A DNA stretch of 32,000 nucleotides from Acaryochloris marina MBIC11017 (GCF_000018105.1 NC_009925.1:2730001-2762000), one strand, 5' to 3'; positions 10,859 through 31,822 are shown, counted from the first letter of the stretch. A program made the numbers and translations. Notes: generated from the sequence alone by a model not told the origin.

Positions 10859-10920
10859 ATTAACCCAGCATTAACCTTAGAATTGACCAATATATAAATA
10901 TCTTCAAGGAATATGCTTAA

Positions 10921-11448: not shown

Positions 11449-11631
11449 TTTTCTAAAGAGAAGTTGCTGATTTATTTATTAAATCTATCTTCATTTCTAT
11501 TATTTTTTATGCGATATTATAGTTCTCATGTTAGTGATAATAAACCAGGAAGTTATTTAAACAAAGCATCATTAAAATCCACTAAATATGAATAATTAAC
11601 ATCAAGTTTCTTTGTTCTCTAAGCTTTAAAT

Positions 11632-12629: not shown

Positions 12630-12702
12630 TGTTATGCCCTTCATAAATCACGATTGAGTTATTGAAACATTGAATTTTTAAAATATATGCTAAATAACAA
12701 GC

Positions 12703-15234: not shown

Positions 15235-15247
15235 ACGAGGAAGTTTT

Positions 15248-17497: not shown

Positions 17498-17549
17498 TTT
17501 TCTATTAGCATCATCATCTAGATAATAGACAATTACTCTAGAAATCACT

Positions 17550-17582
17550 TATGTTTCTCACTGCCAGTATGTTTCTCACTGC
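17550..17582. repeat. Two tandem copies of TATGTTTCTCACTGC with an 18-bp period
   Basis: Read directly: 17550-17564 and 17568-17582 are identical. The repeat lies in the 91-bp gap between convergent genes. Confidence 0.9.
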
Positions 17583-17588
17583 AATAAA

Positions 17589-18800
17589 CTAATTCATTAA
17601 AAATCTAGTCCGGAATTTATCAGCGAACAGTTGATGGAATTTTTTTCGTCTATTACCAGGTAACAAAAAAATAAAATCATCATTCAGCCTACTAACTTGA
17701 TGAGGATCATCACCCACCCGATTACAAGGCTTCCCATCAATAAATCCCCAGTAGCTACATGCATAGCCAGCATCTTTGGCAAGTTTTACAGCCAATGGAC
17801 TCCCAACATAATATGGAAAACATAACTGGTTGACATCGTTATTCTGAAGCTTTTCTTGTATCAATTGTTTGGAGGATATTAGATCAGTATATATTCCTTG
17901 TTCTAACTCATCTTGAGTTTCATAATACCCCTTAGCACCATATTTATTTTCAAAATCCTTGACGACTTTCAATAAAGACTTTCGCCAGTTTTTCTGGCCA
18001 AAAAATTCCACTCCTCCATGATTACTGACAAAATTCGTACAGCATAGCCGAAGTCTTTCATCATCAAGATATCTCTTCTTGCCACTCATTCTAGGGGTAT
18101 ATTCATATATTGGCGTTCCCAGTTGGAGTTGTCTATCCCATATATCCTGTCCATTACTTCTCACAATTGGCACATTATGATGACCCATAGCGTAGTCAAA
18201 ATCAGGACTAAGAAAATCAACTATCTTGGGTGACGTATAAACCTGAGAGTGATATAGAGTATGCGATTGAAAATCAAATACGCTAGATTGATACATCTCA
18301 GAAATTTCTTCCCATGTACAGTATGGCTCAGCCGATAACTCGCGTTCTATTAACGAGTTATAGCCAATTTTTCCAGACCATACATCTTCCAAATTATGGT
18401 GTCTTTGCGCACCTGAGTTTATCACTCCAGGAATTAGAAAACAGGTCGCATGCATGCCATATTTTTTGAGCAGGGGATAGGCAAAGGTCCATAAACTTCC
18501 CCAACCATCATCAAATGTCAAAAGAACTGAGCGCTCTGGCATCGGTTTTTGAGCCAAGATAATACTTAAAAAGTCTGCAGCTTTGAGTGTTTGATAGTTG
18601 TTTTCATATAAATATTCAAGTCTTTGTTCAAAGACATCAGGCTTGACCGAATGAAAGGTAAAAACAGGTATCTCATTTATAATCTCAGCCTCACTATCAA
18701 ATACAAAGCGAGGGTATGATCCTTTGAAGTAAGCTTTGACTTCTGGAATATTTTTTCTATATATATTTTTTAGTTTCAGAGATGTTGCACTAAGATTCAT
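17589..18800 (-). CDS. Polysaccharide deacetylase (NodB homology / CE4 family)
   Basis: LLTFDDGWGSLWTFAYPLLKKYGMHATCFLIPG (the TFDDG motif) and a downstream HTLYH. Confidence 0.85.
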   Translation of the reverse strand: MNLSATSLKLKNIYRKNIPEVKAYFKGSYPRFVFDSEAEIINEIPVFTFHSVKPDVFEQRLEYLYENNYQTLKAADFLSIILAQKPMPERSVLLTFDDGWGSLWTFAYPLLKKYGMHATCFLIPGVINSGAQRHHNLEDVWSGKIGYNSLIERELSAEPYCTWEEISEMYQSSVFDFQSHTLYHSQVYTSPKIVDFLSPDFDYAMGHHNVPIVRSNGQDIWDRQLQLGTPIYEYTPRMSGKKRYLDDERLRLCCTNFVSNHGGVEFFGQKNWRKSLLKVVKDFENKYGAKGYYETQDELEQGIYTDLISSKQLIQEKLQNNDVNQLCFPYYVGSPLAVKLAKDAGYACSYWGFIDGKPCNRVGDDPHQVSRLNDDFIFLLPGNRRKKFHQLFADKFRTRFLMN

Positions 18801-19759
18801 TAGTTCATTAATTTAAGATATAAGTGAATACTTACATTCAAGACTCAACAAGGTATTGAGTAGCTATCAACTATCAAACTTGAATCACTTGATATAGTAG
18901 AAGCATCTGAGCAATCGACATTATTAAATTGAGGCGTTGCTACTTTAGATTAGCAAATTAAAAATAACTGTGGCTAGTGATCGTTATGTTGTCGTACTAT
19001 GCTAATCAATTTAGTTAATACTTCTGACTTTCGTTTATGCATGGAGTCAGCCAATACATCACTACTTCAATTGTTTTACCAGCATCAGAGCAATCTTTCT
19101 GCTCGGATTATGCCATTCTATCAAGCTATTTGATTCTGCAGATATTGAGCTAGCCAACCTTTAAGCTCACCGAGTAGAACAATAGAAGGTGTCATTGTAT
19201 ATGATGAAATTCTTTACTCTCACCTAGAATCTGAGGTGTTCAATGACTGTCTACTGGTGCAATATCAAATTTTGGAACTTCTCATTAATACTGTCATAAA
19301 TATTTGAGGCAAAGTGTAAGGATATCAGTGGCGATGACTCATACTAATTTCATCAATAAATATGGCCATATGGACACCAATTGACTTTATTCAATGCACA
19401 TCATCACATACTAAAGCGAAGTATGTAACTCATGTCTGAAGGAAATAGACCGTGCACTTTCTGATCTCAGCCAGCCATTGCATCGTCTAAGGTAATCCTC
19501 AATAGAAATTTCAACACTCATAACATGGGCAACTATCGACGATCTAACGCTTGTATGGCAAAGTGAGGCTGTTTACAGTACCCAACGGTTAAAACCTACG
19601 ACGTCACTAGCTGATCTTCTTAGGCTCATTGCTGAGAGACATCTTGCGAGGTGAAGCTTTTCACTGTCATGTAGTTTATAGAAATAGTTCCACACTTACG
19701 GATTTTTAAGATTATGCTGCTTTTCAATTGTTGTAAGCATATCTTCTTATCAACCCAAT

Positions 19760-21286
19760 TTGAAGCTATCCAGATTGAGGAGCATAGCAGACTTAAGAAC
19801 AGTTGGCATCTTTTTTGATCTTCAATACATAAATTCTTATATTTCTAGCAATTCAGAGGCAACTTTTTTGAAGTCTATACGCAAGATATTTCAAGCTATC
19901 GATTTTTCATATTTTTTTACTTTTCTCAGTGAAGCTACTTTAGGGATTACGTTTTTACTTTACATTTTTATTGCGCGCGTTGTTGGCCCAGGGCAATATG
20001 GTATTTTCTCAGCAGCAGCTTCCCTAGGCGGGATATTGGCTTTTTTTACACAGTTTGGCTTTTCGGCTTTAATCAATCGTGAGGTTGCTAATAATCCTAA
20101 AGAAGGGACAAAAAACACCTATTTATATTTATTTATTGAATCACTTAATTCCTTATTTATCTTACTACTGCTTTTACCGTTATCGATTGTTCTTGGGTTT
20201 CAAGACAAAGGTATCCTAATTTGTTTTTGCCTCACTATTTCTGAAATTTGTAGGGGTGCAAAACAGACTGTCAGAGGTGTATATCGTGGCAACTCTCAAT
20301 ATAAATCTGAGACTATCTTGCTTGCATCTGAGAGAATCATTTTAGGAATAATTGCTAGTCTAGTATTAGTAATCTCTAAGGATTTATTTTTCGTCACTGC
20401 TGCCTTTGCTGGCGTACGCATTATTGATTTATTCGTAGTAATATTTATTTTAAGTCGACAATTTACTTTATTGTCAGCCATAAACTCGCAAACCGTTTGG
20501 AATGCTGTCAAAAAAGCCTATCCTTTTGCGCTTACAGGGATTCTATGGGTCGTATACTATCAAATCGATCTATTAATGCTCAATACTTTATCAACGTCCG
20601 AGCAAGTAGGTTACTATAGTGCATCATATAGAATTTTTGAAATCTTCTTAACTCTACCCAGAATTATTTTCCTGGTATCTTTTACAAAACTAGCTCGTCA
20701 TAACTTCAATGACAAGCCAAAACTCTCTACAGAGTTATTCAATTCAGTTATCTTACTAATTGTATTCGTTTTACCTTTTATTATTGCGGCTGGTTTACTA
20801 TCTGTTCCATTAGTCAATATAATTTATGGAAGCAGTTTCTATGCAGCAATTCCATCTTTAGTCATCCTTCTGCCTAGCTTAGGGATAAAAATGTTTGGAA
20901 CGTTAATTCAATATTTTTTTGAAGCAACTAAGCGGGAAAAAATTTTACCGCCGCTTCTTTTAACAACTGTTATTTTCAACATTAGTGCGAATGCAATTCT
21001 TATCCCACTATGGGGTGCTCTCGGTGCAGCCTTAGCAACACTAATTAGTGAATTTATTTTCACTATATTTGGATCAACGATGCTGATTCGAATCAAATTT
21101 CAAAGAATTGGTTTCACCATACTCTACATCGCACTTTTATGTCTATTAGTCTCATTAATCCCTTCACTGATTTTTTATAAAGTCAATATTTATCTTTGTA
21201 TTGCAAGTTTTGCTATATGTGTATTGCTTATCGCTGTGATCACCAGAAAATACAAGAAATCATCCATTAAACCAAGAACACTTTGA
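19760..21286 (+). CDS. Second MOP-superfamily polysaccharide flippase/export protein; start codon uncertain
   Basis: Highly hydrophobic multi-helix protein containing ARVVGPGQYG. There is no in-frame ATG in the first approximately 270 codons, so the candidate starts are TTG 19760 and TTG 19868. Confidence 0.7.
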   Translation: MKLSRLRSIADLRTVGIFFDLQYINSYISSNSEATFLKSIRKIFQAIDFSYFFTFLSEATLGITFLLYIFIARVVGPGQYGIFSAAASLGGILAFFTQFGFSALINREVANNPKEGTKNTYLYLFIESLNSLFILLLLLPLSIVLGFQDKGILICFCLTISEICRGAKQTVRGVYRGNSQYKSETILLASERIILGIIASLVLVISKDLFFVTAAFAGVRIIDLFVVIFILSRQFTLLSAINSQTVWNAVKKAYPFALTGILWVVYYQIDLLMLNTLSTSEQVGYYSASYRIFEIFLTLPRIIFLVSFTKLARHNFNDKPKLSTELFNSVILLIVFVLPFIIAAGLLSVPLVNIIYGSSFYAAIPSLVILLPSLGIKMFGTLIQYFFEATKREKILPPLLLTTVIFNISANAILIPLWGALGAALATLISEFIFTIFGSTMLIRIKFQRIGFTILYIALLCLLVSLIPSLIFYKVNIYLCIASFAICVLLIAVITRKYKKSSIKPRTL

Positions 21287-21352
21287 ATGTATTAGAGAAA
21301 TTGCTATCACTCTTATACGTGTTCAGTAAAAACAAGAAGACTTTCCACATCA

Positions 21353-21395
21353 TGATGAGTCAGATCATGGCTGTACTCAATCATCTGACTCATTA
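21353..21395. terminator. Hairpin between convergent genes; candidate bidirectional terminator
   Basis: 11-bp perfect stem ATGAGTCAGAT (21355-21365) / ATCTGACTCAT (21383-21393) with a 17-nt loop. Confidence 0.45.
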
Positions 21396-21401
21396 TTAGA
21401 A

Positions 21402-22844
21402 CTACGGGCTATAGTAATTCCAAGTCAACTTACTACGCCGATAATATTCGTTTTCCCAGAGGGATGGGCGATCTGGGCGAGGGTTAGGTGCAGGATTTTG
21501 ATAAATTCTGAGCTCTTGGTGATTCATAACTACTAACTCTTCTCGCCAATCTCCTGTCACATCCGCAATATATAAACGATCTGCTACTGTTTGAAATTTA
21601 TCAACAAACTCTCCAGTCAAAGGCTTAAATAAACCGACATCTCCCGATTCATGTCTTTCTTTCGCTGCTGCTAATTGCTTTGGCTCCCCTGTCCAGTGAA
21701 TAGGGACAATCACTTCTACACCTTTAGTTGTCCAACCCTTCGGTGCTACATTTTCAATCTTATAAATGTCGATTAGTTTGCCCGTCGAATCAAAAACAAA
21801 TGGTCTTTGGTCTTTGTAGCGGCTACGACACCAAATCTCTAAACCAGGCTTCTCCAGATCAAAATCCCCAACAGCTGCATTTTGTGGTTCTTGATTTTTA
21901 TAATCGGCTTGCCAAAATAATTCTTTAGTATTGTATAGAAAGATACGATTATCTCCACCCTCCTCCAATGCAACGACTTCTAAGCCAGATGAGTCAGGTT
22001 TAACATCTGCTATAAATACTGAGTCTATATGGGGAGCATTTTGCAATTTTATTGGTAGTTGAAATACAATCTCTCCTAATGAATTGACGATATTACCGCC
22101 AATCACTTCATCCTTTCCATCACCATCTAAATCGACAACTCTCGCACCATTATGGGCAGGGCTATGGAAATCATTTTGGACCCAAAGTGGCTTGGGTTTC
22201 TCAGTCTTGATTAATTCTTCTATTGAATAAGCTGCTAGGTGCTTACCCAAACGATAGTTGGTATTAGTAGTAGCTTGCAGTAGGAGATCTTTATCTCCCT
22301 CACCTCTAAAATTTACTACAACTAAATGCTCCCAGCGCTGTACCTTTTTGGGCACATTTAATTGGACAATCTTTTTTGACTTTCCATTTTCACCGTCGAC
22401 AATATGGAGTTTATTATCTGATGACAAAAATAATACTTCTATTTTTTGATCTGAATCAACATCAGCGACTTGAAGCCCTGGAGCATGAAGGCCCGGAAGA
22501 CCTTGAGCCTCTGCTTTTTCTGTAACATGTATATCGACTTTCTTGTCCCACAGCTTTTTACCTGTGCTGTCAAAAACAGAAATCTGATTCTTTTGAGTAA
22601 TAAGATAATCTCGCTGATCATCATTATTTAAATCATAAGCAATTAATCCACCAGAACCATCTTCAAATTCAGGCAAGTCTAATGGAATACGGATAGGCTC
22701 TATACCTGAGTATGGTATATTCTTGCTCTTTAAATTTTCAGATTCACATCCTTGTAAAACAACCAAAAATAAAATCAGAGATAAAATTTTGTGAGTATGC
22801 TTTATCAATATTTTTACCTCTTTCTTTAAAGATATTTTGCGCAT
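21402..22844 (-). CDS. Secreted FG-GAP/beta-propeller lipoprotein resembling PL11 rhamnogalacturonan-type polysaccharide lyases
   Basis: Signal peptide with lipobox LQGC. Repeated Asp-rich calcium-loop motifs: DLNNDDQRDYL, VADVDSDQKIEV, VVDLDGDGKDEV. The C-terminal ADVTGDWREELVV...LRIY resembles the YesW-type GDWREE signature as I recall it. Confidence 0.6.
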   Translation of the reverse strand: MRKISLKKEVKILIKHTHKILSLILFLVVLQGCESENLKSKNIPYSGIEPIRIPLDLPEFEDGSGGLIAYDLNNDDQRDYLITQKNQISVFDSTGKKLWDKKVDIHVTEKAEAQGLPGLHAPGLQVADVDSDQKIEVLFLSSDNKLHIVDGENGKSKKIVQLNVPKKVQRWEHLVVVNFRGEGDKDLLLQATTNTNYRLGKHLAAYSIEELIKTEKPKPLWVQNDFHSPAHNGARVVDLDGDGKDEVIGGNIVNSLGEIVFQLPIKLQNAPHIDSVFIADVKPDSSGLEVVALEEGGDNRIFLYNTKELFWQADYKNQEPQNAAVGDFDLEKPGLEIWCRSRYKDQRPFVFDSTGKLIDIYKIENVAPKGWTTKGVEVIVPIHWTGEPKQLAAAKERHESGDVGLFKPLTGEFVDKFQTVADRLYIADVTGDWREELVVMNHQELRIYQNPAPNPRPDRPSLWENEYYRRSKLTWNYYSP

Positions 22845-23120
22845 GCATATGCATAACTATGCTTGCCAGACTTGAAACTGTTTAGTATCAAAAAACTTTC
22901 AAGTATTAGCACTATATGATACACCTCAGTACAGGATAAAAGCTTGAGAGAGGCGATAGAGGTAGGGTTTCACTAGAATTACCGCTGTTCAAATGAACTC
23001 CATGATTCAATATAACGACCTCAACAGTAGCCTCTACCCCCACCTGAATTTGTCCGCTTATCCTTTTTCGTCTTATGCTTAGCGGCTTGGTCCAACGTCA
23101 AAATCGGTAATCGGAGAGAA

Positions 23121-23549
23121 TTAGCACTGTTTCTTGAAGGAAATACCCACTCTGACTCCAAGAATCTGCCTCCCAGTGAAAACATTAGCAACTTTCTTGT
23201 GAGAATTTGACAATGAGACCATCGCCAAGCTCGTCATCAATGGAATTCCAAGGCCACAGCCACGGGTGCTGTGGATTAACCACACGATCGGGACATTTGG
23301 CACTTATTCCTACAACATTCAGAGTATTGAGGTTGTTCATGAAGAAGTTGCTTTTTCTCTGCTGCTGTGGGTGTCCAAGAAGCAAGACAATTCTAATCCT
23401 GACGGAGTAATGCGGTTGGTTGAGCATTTGTAGGGTAGCTTCTGCATATCTGGCCATGCCTGTATGATGACCGCAAGTTCATTGGTCAAACATGAATACG
23501 ACATGGGATTCGCAAGACCTGAACTCGTAATCACCACAAGTTCTTGCAA
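23121..23549 (-). pseudogene. Possible decayed gene of unknown family (three overlapping same-strand ORF fragments in successive frames)
   Basis: ORFs 23337-23549, 23185-23457 and 23121-23303 are all on the minus strand and overlap end to end. The stretch is locally GC-richer than its AT-rich surroundings. I recognised no family. Confidence 0.3.
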
Positions 23550-24201
23550 GCCTTTCTATTTGTATCGTGTACCTCATTTAACCATACATTCATAAACGTT
23601 CTATTGATCTAACCTGTTCACTTTATATCTTCTGTAGATATCAGCTCTAATGAGTCTAGGACATGGATCAGAAATATTATCCACACAGTAAAATAACCTG
23701 AAATTACTCCAGTCTCTGATCAAAGATCAAAGGTTATATCTATCCACAACTCACTATTTTTAAGGTATTAAAGTGCAAAACAGGATTTATTTTTATCTTT
23801 CAGAATCTTATCAATCTAGTATTTAACAGGGATGGAGCTTCTTAAACTCCTATTAATAACTGAAGTGTATGAGGGATAGCGACGGTTCTAATCAAAGCTT
23901 AGGTTCCAAAAGATCTATTGAGGAACTTTTGAAGATTTATGGCGTCTAACTGTTTGTATTTTTGCTGAAGAAGATAAATATGGCTCACTGTTTTTAGCCT
24001 TTTTAGGATGAAGTTCGATAACGGATAAATTCTCATCTAAACTTCACGGAGTTTTCACAGAAGCTTACTACTATCGTACTCATGTTGGTATTTGGTACTA
24101 TTCCTAAATTTCATTTTTAGTGATTAGTATCATGTATCCTACATAACTTCTTGCCTCACCCTATTGTCCTCATGGCTAACTAGCATAGGCAATATTCCTC
24201 G

Positions 24202-24900
24202 GTGAGTCTGACGCAAAGTTTCATTCAGTTTTTCGCAGGTACGCAGCTAATGGCAGTATCAACCCCCGTCACTCCGCACTCTCTTTCAAATAACGTTACG
24301 TCCCTCTATGAAGCTCGCAGTTTATGCTTAAGACCGGGCCAAGTCGTTCCACAGCAATCTGATCATCTCTGGCACATTGAGTTAGGCTTGGTACGCACCC
24401 TTACTTGGAATGAAGAAGGTGATTTAGTCACTCTTGGACTGTGGGGAGCCGGCGATTCTGTAGGTCGCTTGTTGTCTGAGGTCGCTCCTTTCCAGATGGA
24501 ATGCTTAAGCGCGGTAGAGGTGAAGCCCTTGCCTTTGGCAGGTCAGGATTTGGGGGTGGTGATGCGATCGCACCTCCGCTACATGGAAGAACTCTTCAGC
24601 ATCATCAGCTATAAGCGGGCACCTCAAAGGTTATTGCGCTTTTTGGATTGGCTAGGCGATCGGTTTGGCCGCCAGGTCGATCAGGGACGAATCCTAGATT
24701 TGGGATTAACTCATCAGCTCTTAGCTGAGATTACAGGCATCACCCGCGTCACCGCCACTCGTCTGCTCAATGAATTCGAGCGGGAAGGTAAGCTGTTGCG
24801 CCTGCCCAAGCAACAAATGCTGCTGCAGTTCAACTCAGGGCATCCCGATCGAGTGACCAGCATGGCCCGACATCGCGCTAGAGGGAAACGCAACACCTAA
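24202..24900 (+). CDS. Crp/Fnr family transcriptional regulator
   Basis: N-terminal beta-roll-like region and C-terminal HTH LTHQLLAEITGITRVTATRLLNEFEREGKL. GTG start. Confidence 0.8.
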   Translation: MSLTQSFIQFFAGTQLMAVSTPVTPHSLSNNVTSLYEARSLCLRPGQVVPQQSDHLWHIELGLVRTLTWNEEGDLVTLGLWGAGDSVGRLLSEVAPFQMECLSAVEVKPLPLAGQDLGVVMRSHLRYMEELFSIISYKRAPQRLLRFLDWLGDRFGRQVDQGRILDLGLTHQLLAEITGITRVTATRLLNEFEREGKLLRLPKQQMLLQFNSGHPDRVTSMARHRARGKRNT

Positions 24901-27035
24901 TTGAGTAGGGCGGTTAGCTGGCTGACTTGTTCAGCCATGCCTTGATCTAGCCGTTGCAGACGATCGGTCTCTTGCTCTAGCTGAATGTCTTGAGTCTCTT
25001 TTTGGGTGACCAAATAGGTGAGTTCCGTTTGGCGAGCCAGAATATCATCGTTCAATCGCTGAATAATCTCAGTTTCGTGGGTATTAAAGCAAGACTCGAC
25101 AGCTTCATACACTGCCTGCTGCTGCTCTTGGGCAATTTGGGGCAGACATTTGGCAAATTCTTGGCGAGTGGTGGTCAGGAAGGTCTGACGAACATATTCA
25201 GCTTGCCCTGCCACTAGACCTGCGCCCGCAACAATCACTAGAAACACATTCAAAGCCATGGCTGAAAACAAAAAGCCAACCATTTGAATCACCAAGGTGA
25301 CGCAGAGGGAGGTAAACACCGCCTGCATCACCCGTCGCCAAAAGGGGCTTAAACGACCCACCACCCCATTCAGGGAGTTGGGAATGGCATCCAAGACTTC
25401 AAAGACGGTGTCGGTCCAGGTTTCAGCATCATTATAGGGATGTCCTGATGCCCCATAGGACTGGCCCAACAGCTTGGCATTAATCACCTCCACCACTTGG
25501 GTATAGGTGGCCTGATATTGGTCGGCAACGGCTTGCACCTGAGCAAAAGCCGTGTCTAATTGCTGGGTCGCCTGCATTTCCCACTCCGCCAATTTATCCG
25601 TGAGGTAGCGTTCAAAGGCTCGCTTAAAGGATTCATGGAACTTGGCCCGGTTCTGTTTGTTGAGGAAGTCTAAAAACTCTAGATCGGGCTGGGAGGCCAC
25701 AAAGTCCGTTTCAAAGGTTTTTTCCAGCTGCAGCATATAGGCCCGAAATGAATCGGCAATGGATTGGGCTTCGCGATCGCGGATTTGGCGAATTTCGGTC
25801 TGAAAGTCCGTGGAGACGGTTGCGAGCTGATCGAACTCACTTTGGACGGAAGCAACTTTCGCCTTCAGGTTACCGATATCCTCGTCTAACAAGGGAATCC
25901 GCCGTTCAACCGCTTCATGGACATGGGCCGCCACGGCCCGAGCTTGATGCACGGCATGATTTAACTCAGCATTGGTGCGCTCGCGGGTTAAAAACTGGGT
26001 GAGGGCATCGAGAAATGCGGGTATACCCGTTTCGTCTAGGGAGGCTTTGGGGTCGTGGAGTTGTGACCTTAACGCGGGCAACGCTGAAATTTCAAAGACC
26101 CGCTGTTGATAGCGATCTTCGCCATTGACTGAACAGTAGGGGGAGAGGTGGGTTTGAAAAACTTGTCGGAGCTTTGCTTCTGCCTCGGTCAAGGCACTTT
26201 TATCCTCTGGATCGAGCAGACTGGTTTTCACTTTATCCCAGGCATTGAGGAGAAAGAAAATCGTTAGTCCTCGGTTCTGGAGAAAGTTGCGGAGGTAACG
26301 CCGCTCATCGAGGGTGCAAGGCTGGGTGGTATTGAGGACAAATAACACCGCATGACAGTCGTTGAGATAGTTGAGGACTAGCTCGTTACGGGCTTCTGTA
26401 TCGTTTAAGCCAGGGGTATCGACGATTTCAATTCCTTTGGCTAAGAGAGGCAGGGGATACTCGATCACCGCATGACTGACATTGGGAAAGGCTTGCTCAT
26501 CCTTATCCTGTAGCGCTTTGGATTCGGACGGGTCGATGGTGTATTTCCATTTGAAGGTGGCGACATCAATCTGCTGGGGTGGGGTGTCATCACGAAAATA
26601 AATGGTGACTTGCTTCTGGGGGCCATATTTGAGAACGCTCAAAATGGCGGTACAAGGGTTGACATCGCTGGGCAGCAGTCGTTCTCCCAAAATGGCATTG
26701 ATCAGGGTACTTTTGCCACGTTTGAGATCGCCCAAGACTACTAACCGAAAGACGCCTTGCCGCAGATGATCACTAGCGGTTTTAACCAAGGTGATCTGGC
26801 GATCAAAGCCTAAAGATCCTGAAGCCTTGGTACCGTCCAGTTCCGATTGAATCAGCCCCTGAGACATGTGATCTAAATGATCGGCAACCTGCTCGCGAAC
26901 ACGGCGAACTTGGTCAAAATCATCTAAATATCCCGCAGGTGGGGAGGCGTTGACAGGATTGCTCATGGATTGGCGGTTGAAAGGACTGAAGTCTGAGATA
27001 GCGAGCGCTGACCGTACCATCATAGCGACAGCCAA
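24897..27035 (-). CDS. Bacterial dynamin-like protein (BDLP type)
   Basis: G1 VLGDLKRGKSTLINAILG followed by LLPSDVNPCTA, G3 DTPGLND, and G4-like NAWD. A hydrophobic paddle (VFTSLCVTLVIQMVGFLFSAMALNVFLVIVAGAGLVAG) sits within a long helical stalk. At 712 aa its length is close to the Nostoc punctiforme BDLP archetype. Confidence 0.88.
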   Translation of the reverse strand: MAVAMMVRSALAISDFSPFNRQSMSNPVNASPPAGYLDDFDQVRRVREQVADHLDHMSQGLIQSELDGTKASGSLGFDRQITLVKTASDHLRQGVFRLVVLGDLKRGKSTLINAILGERLLPSDVNPCTAILSVLKYGPQKQVTIYFRDDTPPQQIDVATFKWKYTIDPSESKALQDKDEQAFPNVSHAVIEYPLPLLAKGIEIVDTPGLNDTEARNELVLNYLNDCHAVLFVLNTTQPCTLDERRYLRNFLQNRGLTIFFLLNAWDKVKTSLLDPEDKSALTEAEAKLRQVFQTHLSPYCSVNGEDRYQQRVFEISALPALRSQLHDPKASLDETGIPAFLDALTQFLTRERTNAELNHAVHQARAVAAHVHEAVERRIPLLDEDIGNLKAKVASVQSEFDQLATVSTDFQTEIRQIRDREAQSIADSFRAYMLQLEKTFETDFVASQPDLEFLDFLNKQNRAKFHESFKRAFERYLTDKLAEWEMQATQQLDTAFAQVQAVADQYQATYTQVVEVINAKLLGQSYGASGHPYNDAETWTDTVFEVLDAIPNSLNGVVGRLSPFWRRVMQAVFTSLCVTLVIQMVGFLFSAMALNVFLVIVAGAGLVAGQAEYVRQTFLTTTRQEFAKCLPQIAQEQQQAVYEAVESCFNTHETEIIQRLNDDILARQTELTYLVTQKETQDIQLEQETDRLQRLDQGMAEQVSQLTALLN

Positions 27036-27751: not shown

Positions 27752-27757
27752 GTGAGT

Positions 27758-28102
27758 ATGGCACGGACCAAAACAACCTTTGACCCTTTTAATGCAATTG
27801 CAGAACCGAAACGGCGAGCCCTAATTGAAGCGCTGGTCGGTCAGGAACTGACGGTGAATCAGATTGTGGAGCGGATGGGATGGAGCCAGCCGATGGTTTC
27901 AAAGCACTTGGGTGTTTTGAAGCAGGTGGGGTTGGTTTCGGAACGGAAGGAGGGCCGATATCGGGTCTATAGGGTCAATGCCGATCAGTTGAAACCAATA
28001 CAAGAGTGGGTGATCCAGTTTGAGCAGTTTTGGAGTGACAGTCTGGATCACCTGGAAACCTATTTAGACGAAATCCAAGCAAACGAGGTGAATGATGAGT
28101 AA
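27758..28102 (+). CDS. ArsR/SmtB family transcriptional regulator
   Basis: RRALIEALVGQELTVNQIVERMGWSQPMVSKHLGVLKQVGLVSERKEGRYRVY (winged HTH). The track start GTG 27752 would overlap the -10 box. Confidence 0.85.
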   Translation: MARTKTTFDPFNAIAEPKRRALIEALVGQELTVNQIVERMGWSQPMVSKHLGVLKQVGLVSERKEGRYRVYRVNADQLKPIQEWVIQFEQFWSDSLDHLETYLDEIQANEVNDE

Positions 28103-28616
28103 TTCCCATGCGATTCATGCTGAACCATTGCGACTCACTCGTGAGCTGAAGGCACCGAGGCAGTTGGTGTTTGAGGCTTGGACGCAACCAGAACATTTAC
28201 AAAACTGGATGTTCCCAAAGCAGGGATTTGCTTGTGAGTATGTGTCTGTGGATATCCGAGCGGGCGGGTCTTCGCTACATAAAATGACGACGCCGAGCGG
28301 ATATGAGATGTGGTTGCTGACTCAATATGAAGTAGTCAGTCCACCAGACCGTTTGGTGTTTAGGCAGTATAGTTCTAATACAGCGGGTGAGATTGTACCA
28401 AATACTCAAATCTCTAACTGGCCGCCAGAAATCAGGGCAACGGTGACGTTGGAGGAAGTGGGTGACAAGACGAAGTTGGCGTTTATCTGGGAACCAATTA
28501 ATCCAACGGCTGAGGAAGCTGAGGCGTTTGAAGCTGCGCGTGATCAACATGGCCAAGGCTGGGGGGGTGGTCTGAACCAGCTCGAACTGTATCTTGGCAA
28601 CGTATCCAAACAGTAG
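28092..28616 (+). CDS. SRPBCC superfamily protein (AHSA1/START-like)
   Basis: VFEAWTQPEHLQNWMFP...DIRAGGS...YEVVSPPDRLVF pattern. It overlaps the ArsR stop by 11 nt, and this pairing is common. Confidence 0.8.
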   Translation: MMSNSHAIHAEPLRLTRELKAPRQLVFEAWTQPEHLQNWMFPKQGFACEYVSVDIRAGGSSLHKMTTPSGYEMWLLTQYEVVSPPDRLVFRQYSSNTAGEIVPNTQISNWPPEIRATVTLEEVGDKTKLAFIWEPINPTAEEAEAFEAARDQHGQGWGGGLNQLELYLGNVSKQ

Positions 28617-28751: not shown

Positions 28752-31052
28752 TTACAATTCACGGGACTGCCTTGTGCTGCAATCTACAAGTCTTTGTGCA
28801 AGAAAAGTAGCCCAGCCAACGAGCCAATGCCCCCCGCCCCGGCCGACTGACAACACAACAGCCGGAAATTCTCCAGGAAGAGTCTTATTTATATCGAAGG
28901 TCAAGTCTGGGTATGCTCGCCAATTGCCATTACTTCTCCAACCAACACGATCACCAAACTTTTCCCACTTATCATTGTAAATTGTAGGGCTTCCACATTC
29001 TTCCCAAATTTTTTTTTGCACACTGAAACCCCATTTACCCTTGCTGTATTGCACCCACAATTGATCAACCATTTGCAGGTCTTCACAAGGAAAAGTTTTA
29101 AGGTCATTTTCACTCAACAATTGTCCATCTTCTTTCCCCACCGTGGTAATCATCAAGCGATAGGTTTCTTGATCGGCTTCATACCACTGTTGATTTTTTA
29201 GAAGTTGTTCTAAGGTTGCATAACGAGAATTTTCTACTTGGGGGGTGAGTTGTTGGAAAGCAGCTAACTCATCTGCGGTTAAATCCAGCCGCTTCGTCGT
29301 GTCTTGCTGAATGGTATAGGCCAAATCAATAGCTTCTTGATGCAAGGCTTCTCGAATGAGTGGTGTGGGATTGACCTGCGAGGCATAGAGCAAAATGGTC
29401 TGTTTCCACCAGTCATTTTTGAGGTGTTCATATAGAAATGCTTCTTGCTTGCCCTCAGCAATTTGCTTTGCTGCTAAGTACTCTTGCAAACTGAGATGTG
29501 CAAATTCGAATTCACCTGGCTCCCGCTCCACTAGAAGTTCACTAATCTGTACTACTTGCGCCAAAAAATCCTTAGATTGAACTGTTTCTTGTTGTTGTGC
29601 CAAATAAGTATCGATACAATCCACTAAGACAGAGCGATCCAAACGCTCTTCATGGGCTTCCATCATGGATAAAGCCAACCGTTGCAATATAAGCTGGGCT
29701 TCGCAATTGATTAAACAAGTCTCCAGTTTCCGTGCCCCCGGTCGATCTCGAAGCTGGAGTATACAAATTTCTCGGTAGAGTTCAACTCGGCGCTTGGGTA
29801 ACTCCATTCCTGGGAATCGCCGATGGAACGTCACAATCATATTCAGCAACAGCGGATTTTTAGCTAAATCTTTTAGCTCTTGCCGCGCTTCAATTTGGGT
29901 TAGCAGTTCCTCGGCGGCATCTTGCGCATCTTTCTGAACGTCAGGGGTTGTATCCCCACCCCTGGCATAGCGCTCTTGACACAAATACCAATGCTCTACA
30001 AAATCGCGGCGTTGAGATTCATTAAAGTCTTGCACCCATAGACGGGTCGAAAGTTCCAGACGGTCGGCAGGTTCCTGCTCGTTATAGGCTTTAGGACGGG
30101 AAGTGACGATAAATACTGATTTGCTGTAATGGCGCATCTGGTCATTAATCCATCGAGCCACTGCCGGACGCTGCCCAGAGGCCACCTCATCAAAGCCATC
30201 CAGCATCACCACCGCTTTTCCTTGACGGAGCTGTTTCTGAACCCAATCCTCCGGTAAGTCAGCTAGCTTGTCAGAGTCTGGTAAATCTGGAATGTGATGG
30301 TTTTTAATCAACTCAAGCAGAGTCGGTGGTTGCTCCTGAGCGAGACGGTCTCGATGTTTCCGCAACACTAGCAAAAATGGTACTCGTCGCGGAACGCCAT
30401 ACTTGCCCTGTTGATCCATCCCATAGGTATGGGCAATATGTTTAAGCAAAGTCGTTTTGCCATACCCACCCCAGGCCAACACCACAATTTGTCGGAAGGT
30501 TAATTCTTGATCCGTCTTGCCAAGTAAGTCCCAAATTTTGTGTCCACAAACTCCATCACGAGCAGACTTTTCAAGGTGCTGTTCAGGGAACTTCCGCCAA
30601 CCTGCTGGTAAGGAGCTAGCGTCCAACTCTAAAGGAACATAAATTTCTTCCAACAGGGGCATAAAAATACCATCATGTTGCACCACCCCTTCAGATTTCT
30701 GACGACGGCAAGCCCAAGCTTGACATCGATAATACTGTTCTTCTACGCCACTAACTTTAGCAATGCCATGATCAATCGCTTTATTGGCGGCTTCTCCTGC
30801 TTTTGTTAGGCGATCTTGATTGCCCTTATGAACTGGGTTAAGCAGACTGGCTCCATAGGAAATTCCCAAACCAATCACTCCAGACGCCAAGGCTTTGGGA
30901 ATATCACTATCTTTGAACAGGGACCAAAACGCACCTGCTCCACCTACCGTCACCCCACCTGTCCGTACTGCTTTAACCACAACATCCGCAATCTGGTCGC
31001 TGAGAGAAACCTTAGCTTTAGGTTTTGAAGTAGGTTTGTCAGTCTTGGTCAT
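28752..31052 (-). CDS. NACHT-family STAND NTPase with an N-terminal Gly-rich membrane segment and a C-terminal GUN4 domain
   Basis: Walker A AWGGYGKTTLLKHIA and Walker B VVMLDGFDEV. The C-terminus QQWYEADQETYRLMITTVG...FPCEDLQMVDQLWVQYSKGKWGFSVQKKIW...VGWRSNGNW matches the GUN4 signature. The N-terminus carries GGVTVGGAGAFW and ALASGVIGLGISYGASLL. Confidence 0.85.
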   Translation of the reverse strand: MTKTDKPTSKPKAKVSLSDQIADVVVKAVRTGGVTVGGAGAFWSLFKDSDIPKALASGVIGLGISYGASLLNPVHKGNQDRLTKAGEAANKAIDHGIAKVSGVEEQYYRCQAWACRRQKSEGVVQHDGIFMPLLEEIYVPLELDASSLPAGWRKFPEQHLEKSARDGVCGHKIWDLLGKTDQELTFRQIVVLAWGGYGKTTLLKHIAHTYGMDQQGKYGVPRRVPFLLVLRKHRDRLAQEQPPTLLELIKNHHIPDLPDSDKLADLPEDWVQKQLRQGKAVVMLDGFDEVASGQRPAVARWINDQMRHYSKSVFIVTSRPKAYNEQEPADRLELSTRLWVQDFNESQRRDFVEHWYLCQERYARGGDTTPDVQKDAQDAAEELLTQIEARQELKDLAKNPLLLNMIVTFHRRFPGMELPKRRVELYREICILQLRDRPGARKLETCLINCEAQLILQRLALSMMEAHEERLDRSVLVDCIDTYLAQQQETVQSKDFLAQVVQISELLVEREPGEFEFAHLSLQEYLAAKQIAEGKQEAFLYEHLKNDWWKQTILLYASQVNPTPLIREALHQEAIDLAYTIQQDTTKRLDLTADELAAFQQLTPQVENSRYATLEQLLKNQQWYEADQETYRLMITTVGKEDGQLLSENDLKTFPCEDLQMVDQLWVQYSKGKWGFSVQKKIWEECGSPTIYNDKWEKFGDRVGWRSNGNWRAYPDLTFDINKTLPGEFPAVVLSVGRGGGHWLVGWATFLAQRLVDCSTRQSREL

Positions 31053-31376: not shown

Positions 31377-31405
31377 CCTCAAATCCCTCATTCTGGAGAC
31401 TTTGA
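31377..31405 (+). repeat. G/C-hairpin repeat copy C (degenerate), overlapping the 3' end of the DUF559 CDS
   Basis: CCTCAAATCCCTCATTCTGGAGACTTTGA compared with copy A. It encodes the C-terminal KSPE-stop of the DUF559 ORF on the minus strand. Confidence 0.6.
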
Positions 31406-31822
31406 TTGTCGATCAAGGCTTTGCTCACTCGCATATCGGATTTGCTGAAGTACCTGATCTAGGTGGTGCATAACGTCTGAGTTCTGGAATCGGATCACTC
31501 GGAAACCAAGCTGGTTGAATTGCTCGGTACGGGCTTCATCATACTCCACCTGCTGATTGTGGATGTCGCCGTCTAGCTCAATCACTAATCGGCATTGGGG
31601 ACAGTAAAAATCGACAATGAACGAACCAATGGCGTGTTGACAGCGGAATTTCAGGCCGCTGAGTTGACGTTTTTGCAGTGCTTTCCACAGCTTTTGTTCG
31701 GCAGGCGTCAGATTGAGTCTGAGTCTTCGCGCGGCGGCAACGACGGCTGGGGTCATGCCGCGAATACGGTGGCGCTGCATCTGCTTCTCTCGCATCGTGT
31801 TACCCCTAACCCTATCTCCCAT
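31388..31822 (-). CDS. DUF559 endonuclease-domain protein (Vsr-like fold)
   Basis: LTPAEQKLWKALQKRQLSGLKFRCQHAIGSFIVDFYCPQCRLVIELDGDIH...RTEQFNQLGFRVIRF is the classic DUF559 pattern. Confidence 0.85.
   Translation of the reverse strand: MGDRVRGNTMREKQMQRHRIRGMTPAVVAAARRLRLNLTPAEQKLWKALQKRQLSGLKFRCQHAIGSFIVDFYCPQCRLVIELDGDIHNQQVEYDEARTEQFNQLGFRVIRFQNSDVMHHLDQVLQQIRYASEQSLDRQSKSPE

Follow-up and report, generated by a model that had tools for sequence, protein, structure and literature searches.

Introduction

What a GUN4 domain does at the C-terminal end of an NLR-like switch protein is the question raised by an open reading frame in the window, the latter being the whole stretch of 32,000 nt of Acaryochloris marina DNA analysed here. 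A protein of identical sequence has been recorded from Acaryochloris marina, and the product belongs to a type already predicted, the NACHT-GUN4 architecture not being new. The pairing of NACHT with a C-terminal GUN4 domain in cyanobacteria has been called 'a common example' in the Supplementary Discussion of Kibby et al. [quoted passage not shown] (2020) describe GUN4 in cyanobacterial conflict systems and predict a sensor role. The bacterial NACHT proteins tested so far are anti-phage (Kibby 2022). A literature search found no experimental report on any NACHT-GUN4 member, phage protection included, in agreement with the first-pass annotation of this DNA, which knew of no functional study of a NACHT protein with a GUN4 sensor.

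The product is read here, with a probability of about one half, as a cyanobacterial NLR-related STAND ATPase in which a frameshift-tolerant GUN4 cassette gates the NACHT switch. It consists of three modules (Table 1): a family-specific N-terminal module with two Gly-rich helices, a NACHT switch followed by helical and winged-helix domains, and a C-terminal GUN4 module of the paralog type.

Table 1. Features of the NACHT-GUN4 gene, in window coordinates.
Feature	Position	Strand	Basis or remark
Whole ORF, 766 aa: N-module, NACHT/STAND core, paralog-type GUN4 module	28752..31052	(-)	ATG start
Family-specific N-terminal module (aa 15-128)	30669..31010	(-)	Conserved in 116 homologs; profile search
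Gly-rich helix 1 (aa 28-46, AVRTGGVTVGGAGAFWSLF), candidate membrane-inserting/glycine-zipper segment	30915..30971	(-)	KD, composition
Gly-rich helix 2 (aa 54-71, ALASGVIGLGISYGASLL)	30840..30893	(-)	KD; conserved loop KDSDIPK just before
NACHT NTPase module with helical and winged-helix domains (aa 129-600)	29253..30668	(-)	Pfam, motifs, AlphaFold, Foldseek
Walker A	30453-30479	(-)	Invariant motif (56 homologs)
Walker B	30186-30212	(-)	Invariant motif (56 homologs)
TSRP	near 30096-30107	(-)	Invariant motif (56 homologs)
Winged-helix His motif FAHLSLQEYLA	29472-29507	(-)	Invariant motif (56 homologs)
GUN4 'cupped-hand' core (aa 607-730)	28863..29234	(-)	Pfam, palm residues, fold match
Variable G/T-rich, indel-prone coding tract (aa 731-747, AVVLSVGRGGGHWLVGW)	28812..28862	(-)	Unalignable, composition, lengths
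Box 1, conserved element of ~45 nt (CTACTTTTCTTGCACAAAGACTTGTAGATTGCAGCACAAGGCAGTCC)	28764..28810	(-)	Arg-containing end and stops in three frames

The NACHT switch

Pfam NACHT (PF05729) matches aa 195-355 with an E-value of 1e-13 and 52 bits, against a cut-off of 26.7 bits, and across 56 homologs the Walker A (GGYGKTT), Walker B (MLDGFDEV), TSRP and winged-helix (FAHLSLQEYLAA) motifs are invariant or nearly so. Residue by residue, invariance in these homologs extends to G194, G195, G197, K198, T199 and T200 of Walker A (WGGYGKTT), D284, G285, D287 and E288 of Walker B (VVMLDGFDE), T316, R318 and P319 of sensor-1 (TSRP), and F516, H518, L519, S520, Q522 and E523 of the winged helix (FxHxSxQEYLAA). 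The AlphaFold model has pLDDT values mostly above 85 over the NACHT core and shows the NBD-HD-WHD fold of animal NLRs; the top Foldseek matches are NLRC4, NLRP3, NOD2 and NAIP5, with E-values from 1e-9 to 1e-6 (about 1e-9 for the first three against the predicted NACHT module). Pfam, Walker A/B, sensor-1/winged-helix and fold evidence all place the protein among the NLR-related NACHT/STAND NTPases. The first-pass annotation had proposed an NLR-like STAND protein with a NACHT core and with GUN4 at the C-terminal sensor position, and both parts are borne out, the former by motifs, HMM and Foldseek, the latter by a Pfam GUN4 match of 133 bits.

The closest described system is bNACHT (Kibby et al. 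2022/2023), in the class 'other C-terminal sensor domains: GUN4', with which the protein shares the NACHT core motifs, the NLR-like fold, the cyanobacterial host, a non-NACHT N-terminal module at the effector position and GUN4 at the sensor position. It departs from that system in that its N-module with two Gly-rich helices matches no described effector or EAD family, and in that the gene, rather than being island-borne, is conserved across the genus and keeps its synteny there.

The N-terminal module

The N-terminal module occupies the position at which bacterial NACHT proteins usually carry an effector, as the earlier annotation had pointed out, and is both conserved and family-specific. Besides its two Gly-rich helices it has a Lys/Pro-rich tail, a conserved PxHxGN..RL stretch and a CQxxxC region, and it contains no Pfam match. 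A profile of the module found only 86 matches among 1.84 billion representatives, all of them N-terminal and nearly all in NACHT+GUN4 proteins; judged from these matches, the module is almost entirely restricted to this architecture.

The two Gly-rich small-xxx-small segments noted at first pass are present and family-conserved, with 4-5 such GxxxG-like pairs per helix in the window protein and the family consensus alike; the conserved glycines of helix 1 are G31, G32 and G36. Measured against the classical Kyte-Doolittle (KD) threshold of 1.6 for membrane segments, helix 1 has a family median of 1.26 with 0 charged residues, and helix 2 a median of 1.60, reaching at least 1.6 in 50% of homologs. 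The best window in the whole protein has a KD of 1.32 and a simple Hessa sum of +4.8 kcal/mol, the two uncharged segments of ~19 aa are flanked by a weak charge bias, and pLDDT over the module falls below 50-56. Since the module is only marginally hydrophobic and no fold is predicted for it with confidence, a membrane role is conjecture, and the membrane-perturbing effector of the first-pass annotation, drawn from composition, went further than these values do.

A GUN4 core that lacks the canonical ligand-binding motif

Pfam GUN4 (PF05419) matches aa 607-732 with an E-value of 1e-38, its 133 bits standing against a cut-off of 29.2, and solved GUN4 structures are matched both by sequence and by fold (TM 0.69-0.72 to 7e2r). 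In common with canonical GUN4 (Synechocystis sll0558, PDB 1Y6I/4XKB; Arabidopsis 7E2R) are the cupped-hand core, the hydrophobic palm and the G-H-L-P motif of the alpha6/alpha7 loop. The palm residues W623, F654, L659, W666, F676, V678 and W705 are kept, and the equivalents of GUN4 F105, F138, L143, W150, F160, V162 and W183 are either unchanged or conservatively substituted across 116 homologs. The core ends with a GEFP motif, the counterpart of Synechocystis GUN4 G205-P208, and in the cassette generally it ends at G-H/E-L/F-P.

Beyond this point the likeness stops. Whereas GHLPL[LT]N[QA]LRG is found in all four solved GUN4s, LxNxLR (N211, R214) after the GHLP position occurs in 0 of 116 family members and 0 of 109 distinct modules. 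In place of helices alpha7/alpha8 stand a variable tract, 18-182 nt long, and 8-13 residues from a conserved element, Box 1, and the column of W228 is a gap in 107 of the 116 homologs. At the other end, matches to 1Y6I and 1Z3X begin only at chain residues ~90-101, and since only residues ~90-202 of 1Y6I are covered, the window protein also lacks the N-terminal helical bundle of GUN4.

In LxNxLR, Arg214 of Synechocystis GUN4 is 'absolutely essential' for porphyrin binding, and bilin binding by Chlamydomonas GUN4 requires Asn211 (PMC1084334, PMC10156173). A GUN4 'paralog' class is proposed to have lost the ability to bind bilin (PMC10156173), and the one such paralog tested, Synechocystis sll1380, has no gun4 phenotype. 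With LxNxLR missing, the window domain therefore belongs to this 'paralog' class, and it behaves like the corresponding clade. The 'clear GUN4' domain of the first-pass annotation thus stands as an HMM match with a preserved palm and falls short over the canonical C-terminal ~25 residues, which are gone; as judged from sequence, the domain is not a complete canonical GUN4.

The Acaryochloris host makes unusual pigments (chlorophyll d), which counts for a reading in which GUN4 has a tetrapyrrole as its ligand (Proto IX, Mg-Proto, a bilin or a chlorophyll derivative) and the protein, as a sensor of porphyrin stress or of cyanophage-induced pigment imbalance, kills or arrests the cell via its glycine zipper. 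The conserved porphyrin-contacting palm residues and the fold match to porphyrin-bound GUN4 structures speak for it too, as does a conserved Arg that Box 1 encodes in every frame and that could serve as R214, and the same prediction is made by Kibby 2022 and Kaur 2020. We nevertheless hold this reading to be somewhat improbable. LxNxLR is missing throughout the family, the variable tail has taken the place of the helices that supply palm residues V218, A219, Y223 and W228, an invariant metabolite is an odd partner for a variable lid, and the sll1380 paralog lacks a gun4 phenotype. Tetrapyrrole sensing had been read off the domain name at first pass and was overstated.

The variable tract and Box 1

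The tract sits where canonical GUN4 has LxNxLR and forms, as we infer, a variable lid in place of that ligand-binding motif. Even among Acaryochloris alleles it is unalignable, with an identity of 0.53 compared with ~0.85 in the gene body; it is rich in G (38%) and T (34%), and its lengths fall into any residue class mod 3 (36/26/47). Nevertheless, the GUN4 frame is open into Box 1 at 123 of 127 sites (97%), against 26-38% expected from composition, and stops per 100 codons of tract number 0.04 in the used frame versus 5.2 in the unused frames.

Box 1 accommodates whichever frame arrives. Its three frames are used 9/6/4 times across genome loci and 50/43/30 times when all sites are counted, and the six distinct Acaryochloris alleles of the window locus (the window allele and L062-L066) already use all three. 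Arg is encoded in all three frames in 115 of 149 elements (77%), compared with 1.3% of shuffles, and a stop follows within 20 codons in all three frames in 137 of the 149. The two stop triplets of Box 1 vary only among TAG, TAA and TGA (20/20 and 19/20 loci). The window allele reads Box 1 as FLAQRLVDCSTRQSREL followed by the stop, the Arg of this end being R754, and its frame-C stop is mutated to CAG. Each frame yields an [S/L/F]-rich, Arg-containing end and a stop, so that frameshifts in the tract spare the C-terminus and alter the lid; the downstream Arg may or may not substitute for R214. No consensus RNA structure or Rfam family was found at Box 1.

The C-terminal tail, a variable tract plus a three-frame coding element common to many other gene families, had escaped the first-pass annotation, and no mention of either tract or three-frame Box 1 was found in the published literature searched.

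A fast-changing extreme C-terminus on a sensor-type protein is also seen in contingency loci and phase-variable genes and in the variable regions of diversity-generating retroelements (DGRs), as is homopolymer-rich, slippage-prone DNA. Unlike in phase variation, a frameshift here does not silence the protein, since every frame of Box 1 supplies an equivalent end. Cyanobacterial DGR targets have similar kinase, caspase and NACHT partners (PMC7517822), but the tract differs from them in that it has indels of any length and lacks an adenine-specific pattern, and neither a template repeat nor a reverse transcriptase was seen; a DGR target was rejected on the indel-dominated variation and on the lack of a reverse-transcriptase Pfam gene adjoining the family in the contexts examined. 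Tracts were identical in 4 of 4 pairs whose cores are at least 95% identical, and no evidence of high-frequency switching at the tract was found. Its divergence fits near-neutral evolution with slippage and is therefore not evidence for programmed diversification.

A cassette shared with other signalling and cell-death proteins

The GUN4 module is a cassette common to many cyanobacterial proteins of signalling or cell-death type (Ser/Thr kinase, TIR, caspase, vWA-receiver). The module of core, tract and Box 1 also caps kinase, TIR, caspase and vWA proteins, the partner domains including Pkinase, TIR, Peptidase_C14 and VWA+REC, and among metagenomic Box 1 sites 73 of 81 follow a GUN4 core, only 16 of the 73 being NACHT proteins. 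Tandem modules with a read-through Box 1 occur at two loci (L110 and L079), and two Acaryochloris alleles (L066 and L062) match exactly for 2,040 nt, after which their differences are confined to the GUN4 core and tract. Kinase-, caspase-, TIR- and vWA-GUN4 proteins were treated by Kaur, Burroughs, Iyer & Aravind (2020/2021) and carry the same cassette, tract and Box 1, often with the same docked transposase gene (see below); as far as the accessible text of those papers goes, GUN4 is regarded there as a tetrapyrrole-binding domain and the missing binding motif, the variable tail and the Y1 element are not mentioned.

By analogy with animal and bacterial NLRs, the resting GUN4 module would keep NACHT ADP-bound and autoinhibited, and a ligand bound by the greasy palm or the variable lid would relieve this inhibition, the candidates being a hydrophobic small molecule (e.g., a pigment derivative) or a protein. 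NTP-dependent oligomerisation would then follow, and the clustered N-terminal Gly-rich helices would act on a membrane or recruit a partner.

The sharing of the cassette bears on an alternative in which GUN4 is an output or adaptor that, after activation, sequesters or releases pigment or engages Mg-chelatase, for example shutting down chlorophyll synthesis or generating singlet oxygen, while the N-module or the NACHT-associated helical region does the sensing. In Kibby et al., GUN4 appears both among adaptor-type effector domains and among sensors, so that its role as a sensor is a putative one. In longer relatives an FGE-sulfatase (FGS) domain of sensor type lies between NACHT and GUN4, so that GUN4 occupies the very C-terminal end, a place taken by some effectors, and GUN4 is the sole non-catalytic domain in TIR-, caspase- and kinase-GUN4 proteins. 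In these fusions, however, the catalytic domain is the obvious output, so GUN4 is the natural input; variability of the lid fits a recognition surface better, and paralog GUN4 domains are not known to engage ChlH. An output or adaptor role is, in our judgement, distinctly unlikely.

Genomic context and the defence question

Family members share 50-60% identity over their full length across many cyanobacterial orders, a conservation that is unusually high for an immune gene, and within Acaryochloris strains the gene keeps one syntenic locus. In five genera it was found in five different settings, with neighbours that are often housekeeping genes (transketolase, psaD, ispF, trmD); toxin-antitoxin genes are only sporadic, although together with transposases they adjoin several loci. 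Neither a defence island nor a conserved partner gene was found around the family loci in the five genera and Acaryochloris, and no homologs were found in viral contigs or phage records.

Conservation, synteny, neighbours and the lack of viral homologs would all suit a vertically inherited STAND switch that serves housekeeping rather than immunity, tuning chlorophyll or tetrapyrrole metabolism or thylakoid biogenesis; the GUN4 core might, for example, dock on the Mg-chelatase subunit ChlH while the N-module anchors the protein to membranes. Canonical GUN4 does bind ChlH and membranes (PMC2757182). We regard this regulator as unlikely: the same cassette is found on TIR, caspase and kinase proteins typical of conflict and cell-death systems, the tail is variable and the GUN4 cassette is exchanged between alleles by recombination, toxin-antitoxin genes and transposases lie beside several loci, and the bacterial NACHT proteins so far tested act against phage.

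Curated models give no match to a defence protein over its defining domains in PADLOC or NCBIfam. The only strong PADLOC hit, to PD-T4-6 (PDLC04062), was rejected as an artefact of an HMM for a kinase that carries GUN4: it covers the GUN4 part only (profile positions 240-448) with the kinase absent, and canonical Synechocystis GUN4 matches this model too (E=1e-26). Against a cut-off of 790 bits, the NCBIfam DS8 anti-phage model scored 23.

A transposase element docked at Box 1

At about one third of cassettes, Box 1 is adjoined by a convergent gene for a RAYT/IS200-like Y1 (HUH) transposase. Forty-five of 50 Y1 matches are convergent within 700 nt of Box 1, and a blind reverse test of the association succeeded in 2 of 2 cases. 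The element carries a second conserved sequence, Box 2, at its end, which co-occurs with Y1 homology (Fisher p=5e-8) and docks at Box 1 with constant orientation and spacing (99-101 nt). Both boxes lie on one side of Y1 only, a search for a consensus hairpin found none, and no correlation was seen between tract features and Y1 status.

The docking raises the alternative that the tail is accidental read-through, Box 1 being kept for a reason at the DNA level (Y1 docking or target, terminator or antisense promoter) and the tract being a non-functional, stop-free spacer. Besides the fixed docking geometry, some loci show, by eye in the alignment, an opposite-strand TTGACA-N17-TATnnT pointing into the gene end, and the tract peptide is unconstrained in sequence and uses three frames. 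Against this stand the used frame, open far beyond expectation, the stop density of the unused frames, the three-frame Arg, the substitutions at stop triplets that interconvert only stops, and the lack of a consensus RNA structure or Rfam family. Moreover, Box 1 is equally conserved at 57 sites without Y1 and without Box 2. Read-through is accordingly a decidedly doubtful explanation, and the frameshift-tolerant cassette is the reading that we retain.

The Y1 protein itself matches PF01797 (Y1_Tnp) with 68 bits, and its HUH (SNHxHYL) and Tyr (RYIHxNPKAA) motifs are at least 95% conserved in 117 homologs. As in RAYT and IS200-IS605 transposases, its best NCBIfam match is a REP-associated tyrosine transposase, and it adjoins a short conserved sequence with GTAG-like motifs. 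It differs in scoring below the curated cut-offs (68 vs 80 bits for NF047646; 24 vs 55 for the IS200 model), in a conserved extra C-terminal extension of ~130 aa, and in its tie to the 3' end of GUN4 cassettes rather than to dispersed REPs; in 18 unaligned Y1-site sequences, no common sequence beyond the Y1 start, and hence no matching second end, was seen by eye. The element is present at the window locus in other A. marina strains and gone from the window.

Domain architecture of the NACHT-GUN4 protein

The open reading frame lies exactly where the first-pass annotation had placed it, on the minus strand and with an ATG start (see the table), and an identical 766-aa protein is recorded for Acaryochloris marina on chromosome AP026075.1. 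The NACHT-GUN4 domain order read from the sequence was confirmed, both domains scoring above their Pfam cut-offs with a weak winged-helix match between them. Four motifs do not vary among 56 aligned full-length homologs: Walker A (WGGYGKTT), Walker B (MLDGFDE), TSRP and, in the winged helix, F-x-H-L-S-x-Q-E-Y-L-A-A. The AlphaFold model is confident across aa ~170-730; in structure it best resembles NLRC4, NLRP3, NOD2 and NAIP5 and, after these, the solved GUN4s; the assignment of a NACHT core is thus borne out by profile, motifs and fold alike.

The architecture has already been published, and hence is not new. The Supplementary Discussion of Kibby et al. (bioRxiv 10.1101/2022.07.19.500537) lists GUN4 among 'other C-terminal sensor domains' and also under adaptor-type domains, while Kaur et al. 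(2020/2021) place GUN4 in cyanobacterial conflict systems, fused with kinases, caspases, trypsin and TIR. No experimental study of NACHT-GUN4, and no anti-phage work on GUN4, was found in the literature. NACHT-GUN4 proteins form a common branch of bacterial NLR-like proteins known from predictions, and the gene itself is a member of this published, predicted class. What is apparently new here is the anatomy of the C-terminus, with a variable coding tract and a three-frame end common to numerous cyanobacterial signalling and cell-death proteins, and a Y1 transposase gene beside it; no prior description of the variable tract with its three-frame end was found in the literature.

Coordinates of the features in the window, in the protein and at homologous loci
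Feature	Location	Strand	Remarks
NACHT-GUN4 ORF	window 28752..31052	-	ATG start, 766 aa
NACHT (PF05729)	aa 195-355		Pfam 52 bits, cut-off 26.7
GUN4 (PF05419)	aa 607-732		Pfam 133 bits, cut-off 29.2
N-module, helix 1	aa 28-46		preceded by a variable Lys/Pro-rich tail, followed by the conserved 'SDIPK' loop
N-module, helix 2	aa 54-71		followed by P-x-H-x-G-N..R-L and a CQxxxC region packing against NACHT
Box 1, window allele	window 28764-28810	-	compared with L062:6226-6345 and others
Y1 gene, other A. marina strains	L062:6364-7143		
Y1 gene, other A. marina strains	L063:6382-7161		
Y1 gene, other A. marina strains	L064:2544-3323		
Y1 gene, other A. marina strains	L065:2651-3430		
Duplicated Box 2 with small insertion	L021:6320-6470		
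DUF559 gene	window 31388-31822	-	Vsr/MTES_1575-like endonuclease fold
ArsR-family HTH gene	window 27752-28102	+	overlaps the next gene by 11 nt
AHSA1/SRPBCC-fold gene	window 28092-28616	+	
Dynamin-like gene	window 24897-27035	-	Dynamin_N + Dynamin-like_hel_bact, E=1e-122
Low-G+C stretch	window 8000-24000		G+C 0.34-0.39; flanks 0.44-0.51
GT4 glycosyltransferase	window 16319-17497		in low-G+C stretch
Polysaccharide deacetylase	window 17589-18800		in low-G+C stretch
Wzx-type flippase	window 19760-21286		in low-G+C stretch
FG-GAP/RGL11 protein	window 21402-22844		in low-G+C stretch

A GUN4 domain lacking the tetrapyrrole-binding motif

Tetrapyrrole sensing had been proposed from the GUN4 domain at the C-terminus. 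In Synechocystis GUN4, Arg214 is 'absolutely essential' to porphyrin binding (PMC1084334), and bilin binding needs an LxNxLR motif with Asn211, which a 'paralog' clade lacks (PMC10156173). When four solved GUN4s were aligned with 116 family members, all four read GHLPL[LT]N[QA]LRG at this place; the family retains the cupped-hand palm (W623, F654, L659, W666, F676, V678, W705) and the G-H/E-L/F-P motif. LxNxLR occurs in 0/116 members, and helices alpha7 and alpha8, present in canonical GUN4, are also absent. The domain is therefore GUN4 by its Pfam score and conserved palm, though not a complete canonical GUN4. As the defining motif is missing from the whole family, a tetrapyrrole is no longer the default ligand, only a possible one. 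Published predictions take GUN4 as a tetrapyrrole reader; with the porphyrin- and bilin-defining residues missing throughout the family and in the wider cassette, binding assays are better designed without that assumption.

After GxxP the sequence becomes unalignable even among Acaryochloris proteins ~85% identical overall, and it closes with one of three short endings (...LAxRLVxC..., ...LLS[RH]xDL or ...FSRxxTCxL). The Arg conserved in these endings could be the functional counterpart of R214, in which case the preceding tract would be an insertion that separates GHLP from this Arg and lies as a variable lid above the pocket.

A single DNA element with three reading frames in use

At the nucleotide level the three endings are one conserved sequence of ~45 nt, Box 1 (consensus TTCTCTTCTCTCGCGCAnAGACTTGTAnACTGTAnCA), read in three frames as xLFSRxETCKL*, xSSLAxRLVxCxI* or SLLS[RH][RK]DL*; three separate 'C-terminal motif classes' at the protein level were thereby ruled out. 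Each locus has one Box 1, invariably at the gene's 3' end, across genera whose proteins are only ~55% identical. The frames are used 9/6/4 times in genome loci, 41/32/29 among the 116 family proteins and 50/43/30 over all sites. All three are in use among six distinct Acaryochloris alleles of a single locus (the window allele and L062-L066), the strain variants being alleles of one locus because the upstream order of a DUF3685 regulator, a rhomboid, a 402-aa protein and DUF559 is kept.

Termination is secured in each frame. At 20/20 loci the stop triplet of frame B is TAG, TAA or TGA; that of frame C is TAG or TAA at 19/20, with the window allele (CAG) as the sole exception. Of 149 distinct elements, 137 reach a stop inside 20 codons whichever frame is read. 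In 115/149 elements every frame encodes an Arg at the equivalent position, as against 1.3% of shuffles. Selection on three frames suffices to explain why the nucleotide sequence of Box 1 is so extremely conserved. A structured RNA, considered for both Box 1 and the second conserved box (Box 2, described below), was ruled out, with no Rfam match, an alifold energy of ~0 on both strands and little covariation. A dispersed repeat or phage element was likewise ruled out by the single copy per locus at the GUN4 3' end and by 0 viral-contig matches; the one BLAST match in plasmids lies within a GUN4 gene. Gene ends that vary by frame in cassette genes are easily taken for sequencing errors.

At three loci (L027, L028 and L032), good sigma-70-like matches (TTGACA-N17-TATnnT) were noted by eye on the opposite strand between the two boxes. 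They are directed toward the GUN4 3' end, so that in some lineages an antisense transcript could begin at Box 1; they are not conserved in Acaryochloris.

Composition, selection and rate of change in the variable tract

The tract between the GUN4 core and Box 1 spans 18-182 nt, its length modulo 3 being distributed 36/26/47. It is rich in G (38%) and T (34%) compared with the gene body (26% and 25%), and the encoded tails are consequently rich in Gly, Val, Leu, Trp, Phe and Arg. A C-terminal membrane anchor was ruled out by a median Kyte-Doolittle value of 0.13, only 5% of tails reaching 1.6. The GUN4 frame is open into Box 1 at 123/127 sites (97%), against 26-38% predicted from base composition, and just 21% of tracts have no stop in any frame. 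The used frame has 0.04 stops per 100 codons and the unused frames have 5.2; premature termination is thus under negative selection.

Comparison of the Acaryochloris alleles gives a nucleotide identity of ~0.85 over the gene, with a drop to 0.53 (minimum 0.37) at codons ~717-747 and a recovery in Box 1. No support was found for hypermutation of the tract, including hypermutation driven by Y1: in 4/4 site pairs with cores at least 95% identical the tracts are identical, and tract length, G+T content and homopolymer runs are the same with or without Y1. In the sole comparable pair of alleles, L066 and L062, tract divergence is at least equal to the adjacent, mostly silent differences in the GUN4 core. 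Mutagenesis of the DGR type was ruled out, as indels account for the variation, an A-specific pattern is lacking and no reverse transcriptase was seen. On a conservative reading, the tract is a coding linker under weak constraint and prone to slippage, with Box 1 buffering its frameshifts; programmed diversification of the tract is a hypothesis.

A cassette shared across gene families

The GUN4 core, tract and Box 1 recur together as a cassette well outside NACHT proteins. A metagenome scan for Box 1 returned at least 120 sites; at 73 of the 81 analysed, Box 1 directly follows a GUN4 core, and only 16 of these 73 are NACHT proteins. Among the other partners are Ser/Thr kinases, vWA+receiver proteins, and TIR and caspase (Peptidase_C14) proteins. 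Two Ser/Thr kinases (L110 and L079, on contigs Ga0316607_1001841 and Ga0208829_100001) carry two tandem GUN4 modules, the first tract and Box 1 being translated through (…SLLSCRDLF…, …VFSRIETCYF…) because the Box 1 stop has been lost; this looks like serial cassette addition at Box 1.

The alleles L066 and L062, both of A. marina type, do not differ in their first 2,040 nt, diverge by ~6.5% over ~300 nt of GUN4-coding sequence, can barely be aligned in the tract and return to near-identity from Box 1 on. Judged from this alignment, the pattern is one of recombinational exchange of the GUN4 cassette. On the 5' side of the cassette, similarity in all-vs-all BLAST stops at the end of the conserved domain, so the DNA boundary there is not decisive.

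A Y1 gene docked beside Box 1

In four other Acaryochloris alleles, a convergent 259-aa gene lies ~110 nt past the NACHT-GUN4 stop. Its product contains a Pfam Y1_Tnp domain, is nearest to REP-associated tyrosine transposases (68 bits, against an 80-bit cut-off) and bears a conserved C-terminal extension of ~130 aa; the HUH and Tyr motifs are kept in at least 95% of 117 homologs. The family comprises >829 clusters, and every organism name among 120 listed is cyanobacterial.

Of the 50 Y1 matches in the fetched loci, 45 are convergent with Box 1 and no more than 700 nt from it; of the remaining five, three lie in NACHT-GUN4 loci without Box 1 at that stringency and two are N-terminal fragments farther from Box 1. 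Conversely, Y1 homology is retained at 40 of the 109 Box 1 sites with enough downstream sequence, near full length at 20. A blind reverse test started from Y1 homologs, one of Microcoleus and one of Oscillatoria; both proved to lie 60-105 nt from a convergent GUN4 gene, and the tract, Box 1 and Box 2 were all present. The distance from Box 1 to Box 2 (GATCCGTTACCTGGCAC) is 99-101 nt in 48/49 cases, and that from Box 2 to the Y1 stop is 5-10 nt; the occurrence of Box 2 is associated with Y1 homology (29/39 vs 15/72; Fisher p=5e-8). At sites with neither Y1 nor Box 2, conservation stops ~45 nt into Box 1. The window has lost both through rearrangement of its downstream region, where an ArsR/AHSA1 pair and a dynamin-like gene are found instead.

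Read most simply, Y1 represents a RAYT/IS200-like element that either docks at the GUN4 cassette or moves with it; Y1 could possibly take part in cassette mobility or variation. A point for annotation is that a large 'transposase' family is docked specifically at GUN4 cassettes.

At one further locus, L021, two copies of Box 2 flank a small, MITE-like insertion bounded by perfect terminal inverted repeats (CCCAGGGTTCTT…AAGAACCCTGGG); another, L135, also has two Box 2-like copies.

The N-terminal module

The segment at aa ~15-128 is conserved throughout the NACHT-GUN4 family. A word-indexed protein search with this N-module returned 16 candidates and missed even family members, and an exhaustive profile search was therefore used. 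Against 1.84 billion representatives it matched 86 proteins only, N-terminally in every one, indicating a dedicated module at the usual effector position of bacterial NACHT proteins. The full-length matches examined have three architectures: NACHT+GUN4, NACHT+FGE-sulfatase+GUN4 and, in one case, NACHT with a second ATPase.

A glycine-zipper membrane N-terminus had been suggested, and its two Gly-rich helices are indeed conserved, uncharged and rich in small-xxx-small motifs. They are candidate membrane-active segments; hydrophobicity is marginal (family median Kyte-Doolittle 1.26 and 1.60; best window of the protein studied here 1.32, simple Hessa sum +4.8 kcal/mol), flanking charges are weak, and AlphaFold gives helices without a confident fold, both in the full protein and for the module alone.

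Longer relatives with the same N-module and NACHT (P0185, P0190 and P0194, 900-930 aa; P0203, 931 aa) have an FGE-sulfatase (FGS, C-type-lectin-like) domain inserted between NACHT and GUN4, and in these forms GUN4 lies beyond a typical sensor domain (FGS). In one longer relative, a second ATPase (ATPase_2/AAA_16) replaces GUN4.

Possible function of the protein and its cassette

The best-supported reading is that NACHT-GUN4 would act as an NLR-type switch, by analogy with related proteins, the GUN4 cassette serving as C-terminal sensor or autoinhibitory module and the N-module as output. Anti-phage immunity, as in tested bacterial NACHT proteins, is plausible; family conservation and genomic context also leave room for a housekeeping or stress-regulatory role. 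Phage records and viral contigs held no match similar to the NACHT-GUN4 protein.

A strong PADLOC match to 'PD-T4-6' was rejected as defence evidence, being an artefact of the GUN4-containing model PDLC04062. In E. coli, PD-T4-6 is a Ser/Thr kinase of 436 aa, and GUN4 is absent from its authors' HHpred table; PADLOC calls more than 20 cluster models 'PD-T4-6', of which PDLC04062 is a kinase+GUN4 cluster. Since the canonical Synechocystis GUN4 core (E=1e-26) and any GUN4 fusion match this model, PADLOC can mislabel ordinary GUN4 proteins as anti-phage PD-T4-6.

More tentatively, with a probability of roughly 0.3, the paralog-type GUN4 module may be a frameshift-tolerant recognition cassette that unites a changing lid, a triple-frame Box 1, sharing among receptors and service by Y1. 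The indel-prone, G/T-rich tract would form a fast-changing lid on the GUN4 pocket, and Box 1 would secure a similar Arg-containing C-terminal segment and a stop in whichever frame results; because that end is equivalent in any frame, slippage or recombination could explore new lids without truncating or extending the protein. One cassette would serve NLR, TIR, caspase, kinase and vWA proteins throughout cyanobacteria, and a dedicated RAYT-like Y1 HUH enzyme would service, mobilise or specifically target it. If true, this would be a new, retroelement-independent diversification of immune or sensor receptors, and Box 1 a rare natural sequence under selection to code in all three frames. The cassette anatomy offers a testable model of how cyanobacteria may vary the recognition surfaces of NLR, TIR, caspase and kinase proteins.

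Distribution and genomic setting

Full-length homologs with 50-60% identity occur in many cyanobacterial genera, among them Leptolyngbya, Nodosilinea, Trichocoleus, Myxacorys, Pseudanabaena, Crocosphaera, Prochloron and Calothrix, and related NACHT cores without GUN4 in Chloroflexota and Actinomycetota. No conserved neighbourhood or partner gene was found across genera; the settings are often housekeeping, with occasional toxin-antitoxin genes.

Directly upstream of NACHT-GUN4, on the same strand, the DUF559 gene keeps its place in the other examined strains of Acaryochloris, not in other genera. The overlapping ArsR and AHSA1 genes, probably a two-gene operon, are convergent with NACHT-GUN4 and stand in place of the other strains' Y1 element. 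The bacterial dynamin-like protein, which has a hydrophobic paddle-like segment, is encoded two genes from the NACHT gene in strain MBIC11017 only. Elsewhere in the window, the low-G+C stretch with its glycosyltransferase, deacetylase and flippase genes may be an exopolysaccharide island derived from horizontal acquisition.
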